Notes under the pieces: generated by a model
What the model saw: the letters and a program-made list of their open reading frames with translations, nothing else
What the model was told of the DNA's origin: nothing
Database searches by the model: none
Shown here: piece after piece, positions 10,324-18,991 of the stretch
Layout: each line of letters starts with the position of its first letter
Position numbering within the stretch: the first letter of the stretch is position 1
Made by a program: the position numbers and the translations under genes
From: an uncultured Chloroflexia bacterium
Lineage (GTDB): Bacteria > Chloroflexota > Limnocylindria > Limnocylindrales > CSP1-4
Assembly (NCBI GenBank): GCA_963748625.1
Contig: CAVVJT010000007.1
Span: forward strand, 352,001 to 416,000
Reading direction: 5' to 3'
DNA: 64,000 nt

Positions 10324-11028
10324 CTACGGGATCTGGACCGAGCCGCCCCCTGCGACCTCGACGGTCTGGCTGGCCGGCTGCTGGGTCAGCGTGAGCGTTG
10401 AGCCGCCTTCGGCGGCACCGGAGACCGACCCGCTGATCGACATGGTGGCAGCCGAGCCATCGGTCAGCTTGACCGTGGCGTCCACCACCTTGAACTCCGC
10501 GAGCTCGGCGTGGGATCCCTGGGCCATGGACAGCGTGACGTTGGGCGAGTCGCCGATCGCGGTCAGGATGGCCCCGCCCGAGATGTCGAGGCGGATGTCG
10601 TCAACCGTGGATTCGAGGGTGCCGATGCTTCCGCCGGCGATCGCGACGGACGTGATCGAGATCGCGTGGATGGTGATCCGCGGGTAGTTCTCGTCGCTGG
10701 TGGTGAAGCCCGGGGAGACCATGCTCACCACCAGCTGGCCGTCCACGATCTCGGTGCTCAGGAGCGGAAGCACGTTCTCCTGCGCCTCGACCGTGACCTT
10801 GGCCTCGTTCGCCTCACCGATCACCACCTTCACGGGCGCGCTGACGCTGATGCGCGTGAACTCGCCCTGCGTGCGGTCCTCGGTGACCATGCCGCCTTCC
10901 CCGGCGACGGGGGTGGCCGCCGGCGCCCACGAGATGTCGCCACAGCCGGCGAGGACACCGGTCAGCGAGAGCGCGGCGGCGGCAACGAGCAGGAGGCGGG
11001 TGACGCGGCGGGGCGCGCGTGCTGGCAT
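10324..11028 (-). CDS. DUF2807/head-GIN-domain lipoprotein
   Basis: Lipobox LAGC; FTRISVS...VTVEAQENVLPLLSTEIVDGQL and repeated S/G-G-S beta-helix-like units. Confidence 0.75.
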   Translation of the reverse strand: MPARAPRRVTRLLLVAAAALSLTGVLAGCGDISWAPAATPVAGEGGMVTEDRTQGEFTRISVSAPVKVVIGEANEAKVTVEAQENVLPLLSTEIVDGQLVVSMVSPGFTTSDENYPRITIHAISITSVAIAGGSIGTLESTVDDIRLDISGGAILTAIGDSPNVTLSMAQGSHAELAEFKVVDATVKLTDGSAATMSISGSVSGAAEGGSTLTLTQQPASQTVEVAGGGSVQIP

Positions 11029-11221: not shown

Positions 11222-11941
11222 TTAGCCCTCGACCTCCACCATCGCGTCGCCCAACGCGAGGACGGTGGGCTGGTCGAGGCCGGAGGCGACGAGCAGCCAG
11301 CTGGGGCTGAGGCCACGGTCCACGACGATCGCGAGACCACCGTCATCGAGACCCACCAGCGTGCCGCCGAGGTTGCCGAGTCCGGCTTCCCCCAGCTCGC
11401 CACCCGCCGGGACGCAGCCGTCATCATCGCTGCAGAACGCGCCCTCCGAGAGCGACAGCGTGGCACCGCCGGGCCCCTTGTACGAGATCAGGACCTTGCC
11501 CCCGTTCGCCTTGCGGTAGGAGCCCTCGGACACGAACCATCCCTTGGGCAGCACGGCGCACAGGACCGGCCAGTCCACGGCGTTCGCGGCCGCCTGGAAG
11601 AAGGAGCGGTTGGCATCGCTGCCGCTGCAGGCGGCAGCGCCGGTGGCGGTCACGGACGGCGAGGCTGCCTCGGTCTCCGGGGGCGCTTCGGTCCCGGTCG
11701 GTGCCTCGGTCTGCGCGAGGGTCGGCTCCCCGGTCTCGACTGCTGGGTCATCGGTCGCCGGGACCACGGGCGTTGCCTCGCCGGAGGCGGGGCCATCGGT
11801 CGAGCCGGCGCCTGCCGTCGCGGCGGGTGTCGTGCCCGGCGCACCGCTGCCAGTCGCGGCAGGCGTGGCGGACGTGCCGCCACTGCAGGCAGCGAGCACG
11901 AGGGCCAGCGCGACGATCAGGCTCGGACGGAGGTGACGCAC
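11222..11941 (-). CDS. Hypothetical lipoprotein with Ala/Thr/Pro linker and Cys-containing C-terminal domain
   Basis: GTG start, lipobox LAAC, low-complexity linker, WPVLCAVLPKGW. Confidence 0.7.
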   Translation of the reverse strand: MRHLRPSLIVALALVLAACSGGTSATPAATGSGAPGTTPAATAGAGSTDGPASGEATPVVPATDDPAVETGEPTLAQTEAPTGTEAPPETEAASPSVTATGAAACSGSDANRSFFQAAANAVDWPVLCAVLPKGWFVSEGSYRKANGGKVLISYKGPGGATLSLSEGAFCSDDDGCVPAGGELGEAGLGNLGGTLVGLDDGGLAIVVDRGLSPSWLLVASGLDQPTVLALGDAMVEVEG

Positions 11942-11975
11942 AAAGGGAGCGTACCGGCAGCGCGGTGAAGGCGCT

Positions 11976-12794
11976 TCAGGAGGGGCCGAACGACCGGGCC
12001 ACGCCGAACGCGGCACGCCGCGCGGCACGCCGGAGCGTCAGCAGGACCGCCGATCCGACCAGCGCGATCAGCAGGACGTTGGTGACGGCACGCCCGATGT
12101 TCCAGGCCATCGAGGTGATCAGCGAGAAGAGGAGCAGACGACGCAGGTTCTCCTCCACTGGCGCGCCGGGGACGAACGAGAGCGCCGGATCCTCGGCGAC
12201 GACGAAGGGCCAGAACCAGAGGTCCATCAGCAGTCCGAAGGCGACGGACGCGACCGCGCAGTAGACCATGAGCATCACGATCTCGGCCTTGCCGCGCAGC
12301 GGCGGGAGCAGCCCGGCCCCAAGTCCCACCCATGACGCCGCGAGCATCTGGAACGGGAGCCACGGGCCGATGCCGCCGCTCAGCAGCGCGGACGTGAAGA
12401 GCGTCGTCGAGCCGAGGACGAACCCGAACCCGGGTCCGAACACGCGCCCCGCGAGGACGAGCAGGAAGAAGACCGCCTCGATACCGGCGGTCCCAGCGCC
12501 CAGTGGTCGCAGGGCCGCCCCCATCGCCGACAGCACGCCCAGCATGGCCAGCGCCTTGGTGTCGATGCCCCCGGAGGAGAGCTGGCTCATCATCACCACC
12601 AGGAGGACCGGGAGGACGAGCACGAACACGAACGGCGCATCCGAGCCGTGGCCGATCCCGGCGCCGGCCACGGGGGCGGGCGCGATGAACAGCGGCCAGA
12701 AGAAGGCCGCGAGCGACGCGACCGACGCGACGATGAGGACGAGGCGCGCCTGGCGCCCCACGGCGACCGCGCCCGCCGGCCGGCCCGCGTTCAT
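11976..12794 (-). CDS. ECF transporter S component (probably cobalamin; CbrT-like)
   Basis: Multi-TM protein with LAMLGVLSA, RVFGPGFGF, GGIGPWLPFQM; last gene of the riboswitch operon; ATGA overlap. Confidence 0.85.
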   Translation of the reverse strand: MNAGRPAGAVAVGRQARLVLIVASVASLAAFFWPLFIAPAPVAGAGIGHGSDAPFVFVLVLPVLLVVMMSQLSSGGIDTKALAMLGVLSAMGAALRPLGAGTAGIEAVFFLLVLAGRVFGPGFGFVLGSTTLFTSALLSGGIGPWLPFQMLAASWVGLGAGLLPPLRGKAEIVMLMVYCAVASVAFGLLMDLWFWPFVVAEDPALSFVPGAPVEENLRRLLLFSLITSMAWNIGRAVTNVLLIALVGSAVLLTLRRAARRAAFGVARSFGPS

Positions 12795-14485
12795 GGTGCG
12801 GCGTCCGGTGCGGCGTCCGGTGCGGTGTCCGGTGCGGCGTCCGGTGCGGTGTCCGGTGCGGTGTCCGGTGCGGTGCGGCCCAGCGCCTCGGCAACGTCGT
12901 CCACGCAGAGCCACCGCTCTGGGGCGAGGATCCGGGCGACCTGCGGTGCGAAGGCGGGCGATGCGGTCAGGATCTCCGTGGCCGGCCCTGCGGCGATGAT
13001 CTCGCCCTGCGCCATCACGATGACGTCCGTGGCGACCGTCGCGACGAACTCGACGTCATGCGTCGAGAGGAGGATCGGCCGACCCTGGCCGGCCAGCGTC
13101 CGGATGATCTCCGCGAGCCGTGTCTTGGCGACGTAGTCGAGGCCGCGCGTGGGCTCGTCGAGGAGGAAGACCCGGGGGTCCGCGATGAGCTGGATCGCGA
13201 GCACGAGCGCGAGACGCTGTCCCTCGGACAGGTCGCGCGGGTGGCTCGCGGGGTCGATCCCGGTCACCAGCCTGTCGAGCAGCGCATGGCAGCTCCCGGC
13301 CTCGGCCCCGGTCTCACGATCCGCCTGCCGGCACTCGGCGTCGACCGAGTCGAGGTACAGCAGGTCGGACGGCGACTGCGGCACAAGCCCCACCAGCCGC
13401 CGTGCCTCGGCCGGCCCGAGCGTGGCCGGGTCGCGGCCGTCCACTGCGACCGTCCCAGCGTGGCGGCGGCCGGAGCCCTGCACGGCCCACAGGAGCGACG
13501 ACTTGCCGGAGCCGTTGCGGCCCATGAGCGCCGTCACGGCTCCCGGGCGCAGGGTGAGGTCCACCGACCTGACCGCGGCGACGTCCCCGTACCGGACCGA
13601 GACGCCGCGGGCCACCAGCACGGGTGCGGCCGTTGTGCTCGCGCCGGTCTCGTGCGGGCGAACGGGCTCGAGGCCGGCCAGCCGCGCACGCAGCTGCGGG
13701 GCGCGTCGACGCGCATCCCGCACCGAGAGGGGCGGCGGCTCCCAGCCCGCGAGACGGCCAAGCTCGATCACCGCCGGCACACGATCCATGCCCGCCAGGA
13801 TTGCGGCCGGCGTGCCGGTGACCACCGATCCGTCGCCGCTGACGTGCAGCATCTGGTCGGCAAAGCCGATGACGCGCTCCAGCCGGTGCTCGGCCAGGAT
13901 CACGGTCAGGCCGAGATCGTGGACGAGGCGCGTGATCGCCGAGAGCACCTCCTCGGCGGCCGTCGGGTCCAGGGCGGACGTCGGCTCGTCCAGGACGAGG
14001 ATCCGGGGGTGGGCGGTCAGGGCCGCGCCGATGGCGACCCGCTGCTGCTGGCCGCCCGACAGGGTCCGCATCGGCCGGTCGCGCAGGTCCGCGATGCCCA
14101 GGAGGTCCAGCGTCTCCTCGACCCGCTTGCGCATGGTGGACGGCGGAACGGCCAGGTGCTCCATGACGTACGCGAGCTCGTCCTCCACGCGATCGGTGAC
14201 GAAACCCGAGAGGGGGTCCTGCCCGACGTAGCCCACCACGTCGGCGAGCTCGCGCGGCGGATGATCCCGGGTCTCGCGGCCCGCCACGAGCACGCGTCCC
14301 TCGAGACGGCCACCCGTGAAGTGCGGGACGAGGCCGTTGACCGCTCCGAGCAGCGTGGACTTGCCGGACCCGGTCGGGCCGACGACCACGCACAGGGTGC
14401 CCTCGTCGACCTGCACATCGACATCGCGCAGCACTGGCTGTCGGGCGTCCGGGTAGGTGACCGACACACGGTCGAACGTGATCAT
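12791..14485 (-). CDS. ECF transporter fused double ABC ATPase
   Basis: Two Walker A motifs (GPTGSGKST, GRNGSGKSS), LSGGQQQ and LSEGQR signatures, two LDEPT; ATGA overlaps at both ends. Confidence 0.92.
   Translation of the reverse strand: MITFDRVSVTYPDARQPVLRDVDVQVDEGTLCVVVGPTGSGKSTLLGAVNGLVPHFTGGRLEGRVLVAGRETRDHPPRELADVVGYVGQDPLSGFVTDRVEDELAYVMEHLAVPPSTMRKRVEETLDLLGIADLRDRPMRTLSGGQQQRVAIGAALTAHPRILVLDEPTSALDPTAAEEVLSAITRLVHDLGLTVILAEHRLERVIGFADQMLHVSGDGSVVTGTPAAILAGMDRVPAVIELGRLAGWEPPPLSVRDARRRAPQLRARLAGLEPVRPHETGASTTAAPVLVARGVSVRYGDVAAVRSVDLTLRPGAVTALMGRNGSGKSSLLWAVQGSGRRHAGTVAVDGRDPATLGPAEARRLVGLVPQSPSDLLYLDSVDAECRQADRETGAEAGSCHALLDRLVTGIDPASHPRDLSEGQRLALVLAIQLIADPRVFLLDEPTRGLDYVAKTRLAEIIRTLAGQGRPILLSTHDVEFVATVATDVIVMAQGEIIAAGPATEILTASPAFAPQVARILAPERWLCVDDVAEALGRTAPDTAPDTAPDAAPDTAPDAAPDAAP
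12795..12873. repeat. 12-bp tandem repeat (GGTGCGG[C/T]GTCC x6 plus partial) encoding the APDT/APDA tail of the ATPase
   Basis: Read directly from the sequence. Confidence 0.9.
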
Positions 14486-15651
14486 GTCGCCGTCGCTCCC
14501 GGGCGACCCACCAGGGCCGGGGCATCGCTCGCCACGGGGGCCGCCAGGCGGACGGGAGGCGCGACCCACGCGGGCAGCATGGCCACGAGGATGCCGGCCG
14601 AGGCGAGGGGCACGAAGACCGGCCACTCGAGCGGCACGATTGACGGATGGAGGGCGGCCGGGTCGATGCTGCCCGCGGCGAACATGGCGATGGCGCTCGT
14701 CACGCCCGTGAGGGCCACGATCGTCTCCGGGATGTGCCAGGTGTCCGGGCGGTAGGCCGTCCGCTGGATCCGCCGGCCACCGAGCCACATCCCGGCCATG
14801 CCCATCGTGACCCCGAGCACCATCATCGGCAGGCCGAGCCAGCCAGGTGACGATCCGTCCAGCAGCCCGTAGAGCCCGACACAGATGCCCCCGAGCCCTG
14901 CGATCACCAGGCCGCCGGTCAACCGGCGCGTGCGGACCGGCACGTGCGCCATCCGGCCGTACCCCCGGGCGTCCATGGCAGCCGCGAGGCTGAGCGACCG
15001 GTCAAGCGCATCCTGCAGGACGGGCATGAACAACCCGAGCATGGCCCGGAAGCCCTTGGTGCTGCCACCGCGGATCCGACGCGCGCGCCTGACCCGGAGC
15101 ACGCTCTCGATCAGCTGTGGGGCCATCGTCAGGGCGACGACGAGGGTGGAGCCGATCTCGTAGAGGGCATTGGGGACGAGGCGCAGGAGACGCCTCGCGT
15201 CCGCCAGCACGTTGGCGGCGCCGATGCACAGGATCAGCGTTGCGAGCCGCAGGCCATCATAGAACGCGGCGAGGATGCTCTCGAGGGTGACGGGTCCCCC
15301 GAACCCGATGCCCTCCATCCAGTCCGGCAGCGGGAGCTCCGGCAGCACGAAGATCACGTGGGTGCCGTAGTCGCCACCGAAGAGGACCCGGAGCCCGACG
15401 CGCAGCGCGACGACGACGCCGGCAAGGATGAGGTACGCCCCGAAATAGCGGGCCCACGGGGCATCGCTGCGGCGCTCGTTCACCACGACGAGCAGGACCG
15501 CGATGATCAGCCCGAGGAGCAGCGGATTGGTCGTGTGACTTGCCGCGGCCGCAAGCCCCAGGGCCCAGGTCCACCACGCGAGCGGGTGGAGCGCACGTGG
15601 AAGCCGCCCCCCTGCAGCGCCGCGGTCCCGCTGGACGTCGGACGTCGTCAG
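14482..15651 (-). CDS. ecfT: ECF transmembrane T component (EcfT/CbiQ family), probable CTG start
   Basis: AMDARGYG and ARRIRG motifs. The open frame upstream of the track start encodes [26 protein letters not shown]. The only plausible start is CTG at 15651, overlapping the upstream TGA and preceded by GGAGG. Confidence 0.8.
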
Positions 15652-16583
15652 GTCCTCCTCCGGCGGCCCATGATGCCGAGGCCCAGGACGAGCACGACGA
15701 TCACGAGCGCGATACCCAGGAGGGTCCCGACCGGTGGCGCCGATGCGGCGGGGGATGGGTCGGGAGCGGGGGCGTCGCCCGGTGGTGTGCTGTCGGCCGG
15801 CGGTCCGGACGGCGCGCCGGCCACGACGCCGGCCACGGCCGAGGACGACGGGTCCGGCCCGGCCGGGGAGCCGTCGGGCATCGGGACCGATGTTGGCGTG
15901 GGCGTTGGGTCAGCGTCGGGCGAGGGTGTCGGGACGGGTGACACGGCCAGACCAGGCGTCGCCTGCGGCTTCGACGACGGCGTTCGGGTGGGCTTCGGCG
16001 TCGGCTTGGGCGTGGGCTTGGGCGTGGGCTTCGGCGTGAGCTTCGGGCTGGGTGTCGGCTTGGGCGTGGGCTTGGGCGTGGGCTTGGGCGTGGCAGCTGC
16101 GACCTTCGGCGGGTCGATGCCCGGCGGCGGCGGACCACTGCCGGCCGTGTCCTCCGCCCACGACCAGCCCTCGACCGTCCCGGGGGCGGGCGTGCGGCTG
16201 CCGGGACCCTTCTGCCCGTACTTCCACGTCCCGCCGGCGTCCGCATTCCAGTACGACCAGTACGCGTTGGCCGGCGGCGTGTTGACGCATGCCTCACGGT
16301 CGGGGCCAGGCTGGCCGTCAAGCCGGCACACGAACCCCGGCATGCTCGAGGGCTGGACGACGGTGAATCCGGCCTTCGCCAGCGTCTCGAAGCCGTTCCC
16401 GGGCGTGCCCTTGGCACAGCGCACCACGACGCCACCACCCAGCTGGTGGAAGTCCACCACCACCGTGACCCCGGTCGTCCCGGGACACGCACCGCTGGAC
16501 GCATGCACGCTGGGCGTCGTCCAGGCCGCCACACTGGTGACCAGCGCGAGCGCCACGAGCAGCGAGGCGAGTCGACGTGACAT
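15648..16583 (-). CDS. Membrane-anchored protein with transcobalamin-C-terminal-like (DUF4430-like) domain and PTPK stalk
   Basis: Signal peptide; GFVCRLDG...YWSYW...PGTVEGWSW; Pro/Thr/Lys linker; C-terminal TM helix followed by RRRR. Confidence 0.7.
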
Positions 16584-16647
16584 CGCGTGCACCCTCACAG
16601 CAGGGATCCGCGCCCGCCGGACGAACGGGCGCGAACCTCCTGCGCTC

Positions 16648-18576
16648 TCACTTCACGATGACGAGCGCGTCCACATCGATCCGTGGCTGCCCTGCGGTCC
16701 CGTTGGCCACGATCCGCAGGGTGTGCCTGTTGCTCGATGCGAACGACTTCGCGTAGACGAGGATCCGGCTGGCGGCCGGGTCGCTCAGGTTGACCGTCCC
16801 GACCTTCCTGCCGTCGAGGAAGAGCGTGGCCTTGCCACGGTTCCTCCCCTCGGGGGCGACCCAGGCGATGCCACGCCCGGTGAAGGTGATCGAAGCGGAC
16901 GCGCCTCGCGACGTGGTGGAGTGCAGGGTCGCTCCCGATGCCGACGCCGGCGCGGAGGTGGTCCAGGCACCCTTGTAGGTGACTTTCGCGCTGCGGTCGT
17001 CGACCAGCGAGACCGTGAGCGCCGGGCCGGTCTTCCAGGCCGACGTGTTGCCGGAGGCATCTGTGGCCTTGAGGCGGTAGCGGTGGCTCGCCGCGCCGGC
17101 GGCCAGGGTCGCGGTGCGGGAGTTGGCAGTCGGTGACGACAGCGTGACGCCCGCGTACGTGGTCCCTCCATCCGCGGAGCGCTCGAGCGTGAATGCGTCG
17201 ATGCCGGCGACGTTGTCCGTGCCGGACCAGGCGACCTTGACCGGGACGGCGGTGCCGGTGAGCTGCTGGCCGACGCGCAGGCTGACGACGGGCGTCGTGA
17301 CCACGGGCGCGGTGGTGTCAACGGTGACCCGGTTCGACAGCTCCGAGGACGGGCTCATCCCCGCATCGCTGATGGCGACCACGGAGAACCGGTACTTGCC
17401 ATCGGGAAGGCCCGTGACGACGCACATGCCCGCCGTGATCGGTCGCGGCGTGCATGCGTGCGAACCGGACTCCGACTGGGCGAGGTAGGTGAGGATCGGG
17501 CTGCCGCCATCCTGCGCCGGCGCCGTCCACAGCACCGTCGCCTGGCCGACGCCCGCGATGGCGGTGACGGCGGTCGGGGCATCGGGCGGGCACGCGAGGG
17601 TCGGAGCCGTCGCGGTTGCGCCCGCGATGCTGAGCTGGTCGAGGCGCCCGGCCCCGAACCCGAGGACGGCCTGCGGGGTGGACATCAGGAGGTAGTCGGT
17701 GCCACCGGCTGCCCACGGGATCGCGCCGATGTTCGCTGCCGCGGCGTCGCACCCGAGCTGCACGCTGGCGGTCCAGGCTGCGGCCCGGTCTGCCTCGGCG
17801 GTGTGGCCGAGGACGCGGTACGCCTGGCCGGCAGCGGCGGTGCTGCTGGAGTTCGCGGTGCCGAAGGAGGACAGGGAGCCGTCTGCCGCCTGCTGGGCCA
17901 GCAGCCAGGCGTCGGCCTTGCCGAGGGCGGTCGTCTCGCCGGCGGCCTGGAGGGCCTGGATGGCGATGGCGGTGCTGTCCGGATCCGGGGACCAGCTGGG
18001 GCAGCTGCCGTCGTACGAGTAGTCGCCGTCGGTGCACTGCCGGTCGGCAAGCCAGCCAACTGCCTCGTCGGGGATGCCGTTACCGGTCGCGGAAAGCGCG
18101 AGAATGCCGATCGCCTGCTCGAACACCTGCGCGCCGCCGATGTGGCCCTCGTCATCGCCGGTGCCGGCGACAAGGCTGCGAAGCTCGGCCTCGAGGTCGT
18201 GGCCACCGAAGGCGTGGATGTCACCTCCGCCGGCGGCGACCGCGAGCAGGACCTTGCCGAGGGCGCCGGCCTGACTCGTCCCAGGGGCGATGTACGAGTC
18301 GACCTTGGCCTCCAACTGGCCCAGCGCGGCCGTGGCGGCATCAGCCCCCACGCCTGCGGCCGCGAACGCGATGACCGCGTCCGCGAGGTTGCTCGCTGTG
18401 AGCTCTCCCGCGGCGACCTGCCCGGCCAGCCAGCCGGCGGCGGCCTGGCCCGGGTCGGCGGTCCTGGCCGGCAACGGTGTCGCGCCGACCGGCGTGGCGG
18501 CAAGCGGTGAGATGACCAGTACGCCCGTGAGCAGGATCGCCCGCCCGACGCGCACCCATGTCCGCGGAGTGCCCAA
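16648..18576 (-). CDS. Secreted prenyltransferase/squalene-oxidase-repeat (alpha/alpha toroid) protein with FN3 domain and C-terminal beta module
   Basis: AAGGAG RBS plus TTG; [10 protein letters not shown] and [10 protein letters not shown] repeats; [10 protein letters not shown]; FN3 (PDAPTAV...WTAP...DGGSPILTY...YRFSVVA). Confidence 0.8.
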
Positions 18577-18638
18577 CGTCGTTCTCCTTGACGAGGGCCG
18601 CCGGAGTTGCGGTCGGGACCCGGGCCCGCCGAGTGGCC

Positions 18639-18675
18639 AAGGAAATCGCCCACCCGTCAGCCGACGAATGGGCGA
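18639..18675 (-). terminator. Leader terminator-like hairpin (riboswitch expression platform)
   Basis: Minus strand TCGCCCATTCGTC-GGCT-GACGGGTGGGCGA forms 13 bp, followed by TTTCCTT. Confidence 0.6.
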
Positions 18676-18700
18676 GGTCAGTGGTTCAGTCTGCGTTCCG

Positions 18701-18826
18701 GACTCCGCCCGCTAACCTCGACGGGTGTGGAGTCGAGCCTCATCGGGCAGGCATTCCGGCTCGCCGTGGGATCACGGCATACGGTTGCGGGTCAGCGCCG
18801 GCGTCACACCGGCTTCCCCTGCCTGA
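18701..18826 (-). ncRNA. Cobalamin riboswitch (compact form) including P13 hairpin
   Basis: Minus strand GGCAGGGGAAGCCGGTGTGACGCCGGCGCTGACCCGCAACCGTA...GAGCCGGAATGCCTGCC matches the B12-element core and B12 box; it lies upstream of an ECF operon. Confidence 0.92.
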
Positions 18827-18991
18827 CAAGGCATTGTCGTTACGCGCCGAAGCCTACACCTCGACAGGGGCGCGCGCGACCCCTTCCGACGCGACGATCC
18901 GGCATAAGTGGCGCATAAGGCGGCCTGCCCACACTGGCCACCTCGCCCTCCTCCCGCCACTAGCCAACACCCGCCGGAGGAGGTCCATTCG

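Follow-up and report, generated by a model that had tools for sequence, protein, structure and literature searches.

The stretch of DNA analysed here, referred to below as the window, comprises 64,000 nucleotides (64 kb) of contig CAVVJT010000007.1 from an uncultured Chloroflexia bacterium. This G+C-rich DNA contains an operon that is headed by a cobalamin riboswitch and encodes two exported proteins, called alpha and beta in this text, followed by the T, A-A′ and S components of an energy-coupling factor (ECF) transporter. All elements of the operon lie on the minus strand and run from 18841 to 11976 (Table 1). A reading made earlier from the letters alone (the sequence-only reading) had proposed such a riboswitch and five genes, and every element that it named was found at its position on this strand. 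The nature of most of the products was also borne out. The protein that it had called a secreted alpha/alpha toroid possesses a signal peptide and was modelled as a toroid; the small-domain protein that it had placed on a PTPK stalk in the membrane has the expected motifs, stalk and C-terminal helix; and the ECF T and A-A′ genes were recognized by a PF02361 match and by two ABC_tran domains, respectively, the S gene being placed by a protein atlas with S-component clusters.

Table 1. Elements of the operon, listed from its 5′ end; positions are those of the window
Element	Positions	Strand	Length	Properties
Cobalamin riboswitch aptamer (RF00174)	18729..18841	-		Rfam score 40 bits, E 1.2e-6, model positions 1-189 of 189
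Terminator-like hairpin	18646..18675	-		13-pair stem (8 G-C pairs), 4-nt loop, tail TTTCCTT; between aptamer and start of gene 1
Gene 1, alpha protein	16648..18576	-	642 residues	Signal peptide; alpha/alpha toroid (~38-310); Fn3 (333-412); beta-rich C-terminal part (~420-642); no membrane anchor
Gene 2, beta protein	15648..16598	-	316 residues	Signal peptide; transcobalamin-beta-like beta-grasp domain (~38-154, four conserved Cys); Pro/Thr/Lys stalk; C-terminal transmembrane helix followed by RRRR
ECF T component	14482..15486	-	334 residues	CbiQ match (PF02361)
Fused ECF A-A′ ATPase	12791..14485	-	~564 residues	Two ABC_tran domains; inferred start is an ATG overlapping the T stop codon
ECF S component	11976..12794	-	272 residues	Start is an ATG overlapping the A-A′ stop codon; protein-atlas placement and PF12822 matches of orthologues

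The gathering score of RF00174 is 31.5 bits, so the aptamer passes the curated threshold of its family. It is the sole Rfam match in the whole window, and a search of the whole 4.6-Mb genome returned it as the sole cobalamin riboswitch. Four terminator-like sites were observed in the region, compared with 0.7 expected from shuffled sequences. The hairpin that lies between the aptamer and gene 1 is probably the expression platform of the riboswitch. Gene 1 starts with TTG at 18576, and a Shine-Dalgarno sequence, AAGGAG, was found upstream of it. The open reading frame (ORF) coordinates and translations show that the T/A-A′ and A-A′/S junctions are both four-base ATGA overlaps. Between the beta stop codon and the longest possible T start there is a gap of 161 bases (15487-15647) that contains neither a start codon nor an Rfam match. 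A short tandem repeat occurs at the A-A′/S junction (12791-12914). It makes the C terminus of A-A′ proline-rich, with about six units of APDT/APDA, and, read in the frame used by the longest S-component ORF, the same DNA encodes repeated HRTP/HRTG.

The beta protein carries the motif GTVEGW in a domain of ~115 residues, followed by a (K)PTPKPTP stalk, a hydrophobic helix and RRRR. Conserved motifs of the domain are GFVCR.DG, AYWSYW and EGW. When the beta family was aligned, four conserved cysteines were observed along with an invariant aromatic cluster, AYWSYW ... EGW. These cysteines and this cluster fit an oxidising, extracytoplasmic domain that binds a ligand. No model of the local Pfam copy matched the protein at E≤10, and its single sequence, searched against solved structures, returned only low-complexity matches to the stalk. 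Its score for SCO2322_fam (NF040672) was 31.2 bits, under the cut-off of 85, which makes it a distant relative of that family. PF28005, too recent a model to be part of the local Pfam copy, occurs in most of its close relatives.

A model of the beta domain was built from 56 sequences, with a predicted local distance difference test (pLDDT) score of 83.3. When this model was searched against 48161 chains by VIA, the top five chains (2bb6, 5no0, 4kkj, 3u7z and 2pmv; Z 9.1-9.6) were bovine and human transcobalamin, haptocorrin, intrinsic factor and the DUF4430 protein 3u7z. They superposed with a root-mean-square deviation of 2.7-3.0 over 93-97 residues, and the next chain had a Z of 5.6. Ranks 1-12 of a Foldseek search were occupied by the same proteins at an E of about 0.01. 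In the part of the model that runs from helix 69-75 to strand 113-120, DSSP assigned nothing beyond short bridge residues. Judged from the model, the beta domain has the transcobalamin beta fold although its family is missed by the DUF4430 model, which is a point particular to this locus.

Residues 38-310 of the alpha protein, which includes the motif LMSTPQAVL, were modelled as a twelve-helix alpha/alpha toroid with a pLDDT of 91.2. In Foldseek, rat transcobalamin was at rank 1 (E 1.6e-4), level with squalene-hopene cyclases. By VIA, transcobalamin aligned over residues 28-322 with a Z of 20.3, and the values for transcobalamin and intrinsic factor, both aligned on their alpha domains, ranged from 19.9 to 20.3. 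The fold searches on the two models agree with the earlier proposal that the two folds of transcobalamin are held here by separate genes.

Outside the toroid, the Fn3 domain of alpha was recognized by PF00041 at 26.9 bits, and Fn3/titin chains were the only matches of its single sequence among solved structures. SCO2321_fam (NF053823) scored 47.6 bits, under its cut-off of 300; alpha is therefore a distant relative of that family also. No enzyme family of Pfam matched alpha at E≤10. Among 51 members of the alpha family, SQHop_cyclase_C was found in 24 and Prenyltrans in 24. The Fn3 domain is followed by a tail of ~220 beta-rich residues (16648-17320), and among related loci this long tail is common only to the locus of the closest relative (L014, 82% identity). 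For the tail, the protein atlas gave Big_7/CE2_N-like immunoglobulin or carbohydrate-binding-type domains as leads, all below 0.9 except for one unnamed cluster at 0.91.

The T component matched CbiQ/EcfT (PF02361) at 31.1 bits (E 2.4e-7; cut-off 25). Two ABC_tran stretches were present in the A-A′ protein (169.7 bits, E 6.4e-50). Its best models were ECF_ATPase_1 (257.9 bits) and ECF_ATPase_2 (251.5 bits), both scoring under their equivalog cut-offs, and for the cbiO subfamily model TIGR01166 it passed the cut-off of 211.8 with 224.2 bits. The S component of the window gave no Pfam match of its own, PF12822 included. In the protein atlas its neighbours, at 0.97, were clusters named 'ECF transporter S component', and PF12822 matched 29 of the 37 S orthologues from related loci (E≤1).

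A scan of one genome per species yielded at least 635 beta-domain stretches, of which the best 77 were taken as loci and searched with hidden Markov models (HMMs) made from the parts of the window. These 77 loci came from Streptomyces, Micromonospora, Salinispora, Dactylosporangium, Embleya, Acidimicrobiia and several metagenome-assembled genomes of Chloroflexota; the nearest, with 89% identity, is labelled Chloroflexia. Alpha was found in 65 of them, T in 68, A-A′ in 61 and S in 55. All five parts were present in 51, the missing parts being mostly due to cut contigs. The commonest gene order, alpha-beta-T-AA-S, is that of the window (13 loci). It was followed by alpha-beta-alpha-beta-T-AA-S (11 loci) and by beta-T-AA-S-alpha (eight loci, mostly Streptomyces). 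Sixteen of the 77 loci, picked for taxonomic spread, were subjected to an Rfam run, and 13 of these had a Cobalamin or AdoCbl-II riboswitch at gathering score, in each case immediately upstream of a gene for alpha or beta.

The beta-domain relatives that are longer than 553 residues also contain the alpha toroid, without exception (9/9), either as beta-alpha or as alpha-beta. One-chain fusions in either order suggest that the two domains work together. In the metagenomic protein P0193 (761 residues), the alpha toroid (48-328) is joined by a 13-residue linker to the beta domain (341-455), which is followed by three CWB2 repeats (E 3.1e-31). In P0193 the transcobalamin architecture has a bacterial counterpart that consists of a single chain and is anchored to the wall. 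When it was searched against solved structures, the cell-wall-binding repeats and a weak match to MstE were obtained, with no transcobalamin.

Loci with two alpha-beta pairs often have one riboswitch per pair. In such loci the paralogue classes of alpha and beta agreed in 30 of 34 cases and the tree distances were correlated (r = 0.73); this co-segregation is weak evidence, since related sequences share history and labels. Many Micromonosporaceae and Embleya loci (L031, L033, L049, L075, L026, L022) have two pairs, which fall into distinct paralogue classes, often with riboswitches of their own. In L075 and L085 the two pairs are divergent. It may be that the corrinoid form bound differs between the pairs of a locus. 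It may also be noted that in the Microthrixaceae loci L052 (13667-16097), L067 and L081 the S gene is followed closely, on the opposite strand, by additional beta-only paralogues that are divergent; those of L052 sit behind a cobalamin riboswitch of their own (31.8 bits).

Counted in representative clusters, the beta family has 4081 members at E≤0.001, 1891 at 1e-10 and 444 at 1e-30, and it occurs in many Streptomyces, Micromonospora and Salinispora. Within the phylum it was found in 37 of 301 sampled genomes, compared with 6 of 301 for canonical DUF4430. When a stalk-containing beta profile was run on 40 relatives, almost only low-complexity stalk matches were obtained outside the genome of the window, and the beta domain was not found in 24 genomes of the same genus (62-96% complete). 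A domain-only search detected it in another genome of that genus, G119. The distribution of the family is thus patchy.

The genome that contains the window is 98.3% complete, with a contamination of 7.7%. CbiC is a marker of corrin-ring synthesis, and CobS of nucleotide loop assembly; the genome gave no match to either. In contrast, the B12-binding_2 cap domain was matched nine times (contigs C4, C7, C8 and C10). One of these matches lies in a 968-residue frame of methionine-synthase size, and several of the other genes encode 230-370 residues, the size of partner proteins of corrinoid methyltransferases. From its gene content, the host appears to be a vitamin B12 auxotroph with many corrinoid-dependent proteins. 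Auxotrophy, the number of these proteins and the single B12 riboswitch fit the operon being the main B12 supply of the cell. Nine cap-domain genes, no match to CbiC or CobS, and one riboswitch together indicate a heavy dependence on imported corrinoid.

Taken together, the operon is probably a B12-repressed system for corrinoid salvage, in which the alpha and beta proteins clamp a corrinoid at the cell surface and hand it over to a dedicated ECF importer. At high intracellular adenosylcobalamin, the riboswitch would fold and the hairpin downstream of it would presumably stop transcription. When B12 is scarce, the two surface proteins would be made, one presenting its beta-grasp domain on a long, proline-rich stalk tethered to the membrane and the other being the exported alpha/alpha toroid. 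The two would most likely close on one corrinoid molecule in the manner of transcobalamin and presumably pass it on to the S component. Import of the corrinoid by T, A-A′ and S would then proceed at the expense of ATP.

A number of results weigh against this proposal, and several of them concern the beta domain. The check for DUF4430 that the sequence-only reading had suggested turned out negative: PF14478 matched neither alpha nor beta at E≤10, and nothing in the six-frame translation of the whole genome at E≤1. When the beta profile was aligned by hhalign with eight DUF4430 sequences from the phylum, the match was weak (E 0.0021, probability 13.6%, 69 columns), with the three conserved motifs in register. 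The link of beta to DUF4430 thus relies on the fold match and on this weak profile match. Profiles of the beta family, searched against the Protein Data Bank (PDB), retrieved no transcobalamin chain; the stalk-containing profile gave stalk matches, and the domain-only profile gave one chance match (E 2.5). Neither alpha (at E≤10) nor beta matches the eukaryotic Cobalamin_bind family, PF01122, by HMM. Three of the 51 alpha relatives matched it at E≤0.1, the best at 0.0059 and under the family cut-off, and the fused relative P0191 scored 21 bits, under the cut-off of 25.

For the toroid, the VIA search was led by class II terpene cyclases, with a top Z of 23.8; drimenyl diphosphate synthase and the squalene-hopene cyclases scored 22-24. 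These enzymes are structurally nearer to alpha than transcobalamin is, and the likeness to transcobalamin is therefore not specific. The structural comparison put forward in the sequence-only reading accordingly held for the beta domain, and for alpha as regards similarity, but not as regards specificity. As modelled, the toroid fold suits the idea of a B12 carrier but does not single out transcobalamin. Alpha also has neither a membrane nor an LPXTG anchor, while most of its relatives are ~400 residues long and end in a membrane helix or LPXTG. On the side of the transporter, the S component gave no HMMER match beyond chance at E≤10 to solved chains, CbrT included, either as a single sequence or as a 37-sequence profile, S components being proteins that diverge fast. 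No riboswitch at gathering score was found in 3 of the 16 scanned loci (L018, L020 and L040). Lastly, in the one relative studied at the bench, deletion of the lsa1836-1840 operon of Lactobacillus (Latilactobacillus) sakei lowered the uptake of heme according to the available text of Verplaetse et al. (bioRxiv 10.1101/864751), and B12 was not what was shown.

Among other explanations, the one that deserves most attention, though we consider it unlikely, is that beta alone acts as the corrinoid receptor and that no sandwich is formed; the toroid would then serve in docking, in protection of the ligand, in handling another corrinoid form or in attachment to the wall. PDB entry 5np4, which was among the Foldseek matches, is the isolated beta domain of human transcobalamin with cyanocobalamin bound, which shows that B12 binding by a beta domain does not require alpha. 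The beta-only paralogues of L052, L067 and L081, one of these loci having them behind their own riboswitch, and the generic nature of the toroid fold point in the same direction. On the other hand, alpha accompanies beta in 65 of the 77 beta-anchored loci, the two are fused in all nine of the longer forms, and alpha-beta pairs are duplicated as units, all of which argues against this explanation.

The salvage proposal can be extended by a more speculative possibility, to which we give rather little weight. Alpha in this locus has lost the anchor carried by most of its relatives and has an Fn3 domain and ~220 beta-rich residues in its place; this exchange of the anchor for an Fn3-plus-beta-domain tail is a locus-specific feature. 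For this reason, the toroid might be set free as a 'corrinophore', doing for B12 what a hemophore does for heme: it would gather corrinoid away from the cell and dock on the tethered beta domain, closure of the sandwich triggering the hand-over to S. If true, the transporter would be a binding-protein-dependent ECF importer. To our knowledge, no ECF transporter has been demonstrated by biochemical means to work in this way.

It is highly improbable, in our judgement, that the system imports heme or another tetrapyrrole instead of a corrinoid, as was proposed for lsa1836-1840. The L. sakei operon has a homologous layout, and besides the fall in heme uptake after its deletion, the available text of that report describes heme docked into the modelled alpha-beta dimer. 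The L. sakei result, as presented there, is a phenotype of the whole operon, for which specificity was not established. In the present case a cobalamin riboswitch precedes the operon and occurs at 13 of the 16 related loci, and the genome has nine corrinoid-protein domains yet no markers of B12 synthesis; both observations argue against heme.

The view that the product of gene 1 is a prenyltransferase- or terpene-cyclase-type enzyme, its gene standing next to the transporter by chance, can be given hardly any credence: it draws on the nearest structures of the toroid, on the SQHop_cyclase_C and Prenyltrans matches in the alpha family and on relatives labelled 'prenyltransferase/squalene oxidase repeat-containing protein' in the sources, but alpha matches no Pfam enzyme family, possesses a signal peptide as well as domains typical of extracellular proteins (Fn3 here; LPXTG or transmembrane anchors in relatives), shows conserved synteny with the beta and ECF genes, is fused to beta in some organisms and is under riboswitch control. 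The toroid being exported and within a B12 regulon, an enzymatic role is unlikely, in line with the doubt that the sequence-only reading had cast on the 'prenyltransferase'. A corrinoid-salvage function remains the preferred interpretation of the operon.

Two further ORFs were seen on the minus strand beyond the S gene. The first (11222-12028), of 268 residues, shares 53 bases with the 3′ end of the S gene; its product has a signal of lipoprotein type (LVLAACSGG) and no Pfam match. It was considered as a sixth member of the operon and rejected, a relative being found in only 1 of the 77 loci (L019), where that relative is encoded on the opposite strand, away from the cluster; the ORF probably does not belong to the system. 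The second (10324-11028) is also lipoprotein-like. It encodes 234 residues and matches DUF2807, the putative adhesin head GIN domain, with an E of 1.9e-14.

ECF transporters are taught as importers that do not need an extracellular binding protein. The wide occurrence of this operon type suggests that the largest vitamin is an exception. Animal B12 carriers may further have arisen from this bacterial system, as was proposed in 2007 (PMC1796856, in the part available). The prediction is nearly twenty years old, and the present locus adds little beyond one more example, except that a domain of the PF28005/SCO2322 type is now seen, in a model, with the transcobalamin beta fold.

The sequence-only reading had known of no mechanistic description of such a system. 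This does not hold, as two exist. The first is the prediction of Burroughs, Balaji, Iyer and Aravind (2007; PMC1796856), who, in the part of their paper available, defined a transcobalamin-like clade of the SLBB beta-grasp superfamily. They described bacterial SLBB domains fused to alpha/alpha toroids in either order, with signal peptides and anchors, in operons with CbiO and CbiQ and in hosts that are usually without B12 synthesis. Cooperation of toroid and beta-grasp domain in binding and scavenging B12 was predicted, and a bacterial origin of the animal carriers was proposed. The second is the report of Verplaetse et al., in whose available text lsa1836-1840 encode an S component, a fused A-A′, a T component, a secreted beta-like and a secreted alpha-like protein; a heterodimer of the last two was modelled and proposed to scavenge a ligand and pass it to the S component. 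The idea of B12 scavenging by toroid and beta-grasp domains is already in print, and the window holds a further example of a predicted type of system. The literature searched, whose coverage left out subscription journals and supplements, yielded no measurement of B12 binding by such an alpha-beta pair and no paper on SCO2321-2325.

As far as the available part of PMC1796856 goes, the operon resembles the systems of Burroughs et al. in its secreted or anchored proteins, in the combination of toroid and beta-grasp domain, in its CbiO-like ATPase and CbiQ-like membrane genes and in a host that apparently lacks B12 synthesis. The emphasis there is on fused toroid-SLBB proteins and on Gram-positive bacteria, whereas the domains of the window are separate genes. 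The beta family of the window, PF28005/SCO2322-like and distributed over Actinomycetota and Chloroflexota, also differs from their set.

The likeness to lsa1836-1840 lies in the presence of the same five parts and was drawn from layout, not from sequence comparison. According to the text available for that operon, its host is a Firmicute, its gene order is another and the ligand claimed is heme, though the genes are annotated for cobalamin; that text mentions no riboswitch for it. The L. sakei proteins matched transcobalamin by HHpred, whereas the beta protein of the window escapes the DUF4430 HMM.

Import of cobalamin and cobinamide was shown for the Lactobacillus delbrueckii transporter ECF-CbrT in the available part of the paper by Santos et al. 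(2018, PMC5997447). The window shares with this transporter the logic of a T component, two ATPase domains and an S component. CbrT, as described there, uses a shared (group II) ECF module without extracellular helper proteins, whereas the window has a dedicated module and two such proteins. Kang et al. (2017, PMC5301498) interpreted as a cobalamin transporter an ECF module that follows a cobalamin riboswitch in freshwater acI Actinobacteria, the host being auxotrophic for B12. These modules are led by a riboswitch, like the operon of the window, and the available part of the paper mentions no accessory surface proteins for them.

Compared with the animal carriers transcobalamin, intrinsic factor and haptocorrin (2bb6, 8ixu, 2pmv, 4kki/4kkj), the alpha and beta proteins show, as modelled, the same two folds, and in both cases the proteins are extracellular. 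The animal carriers consist of one chain with neither membrane tether nor ECF partner, whereas in the window the two folds are divided between two genes.

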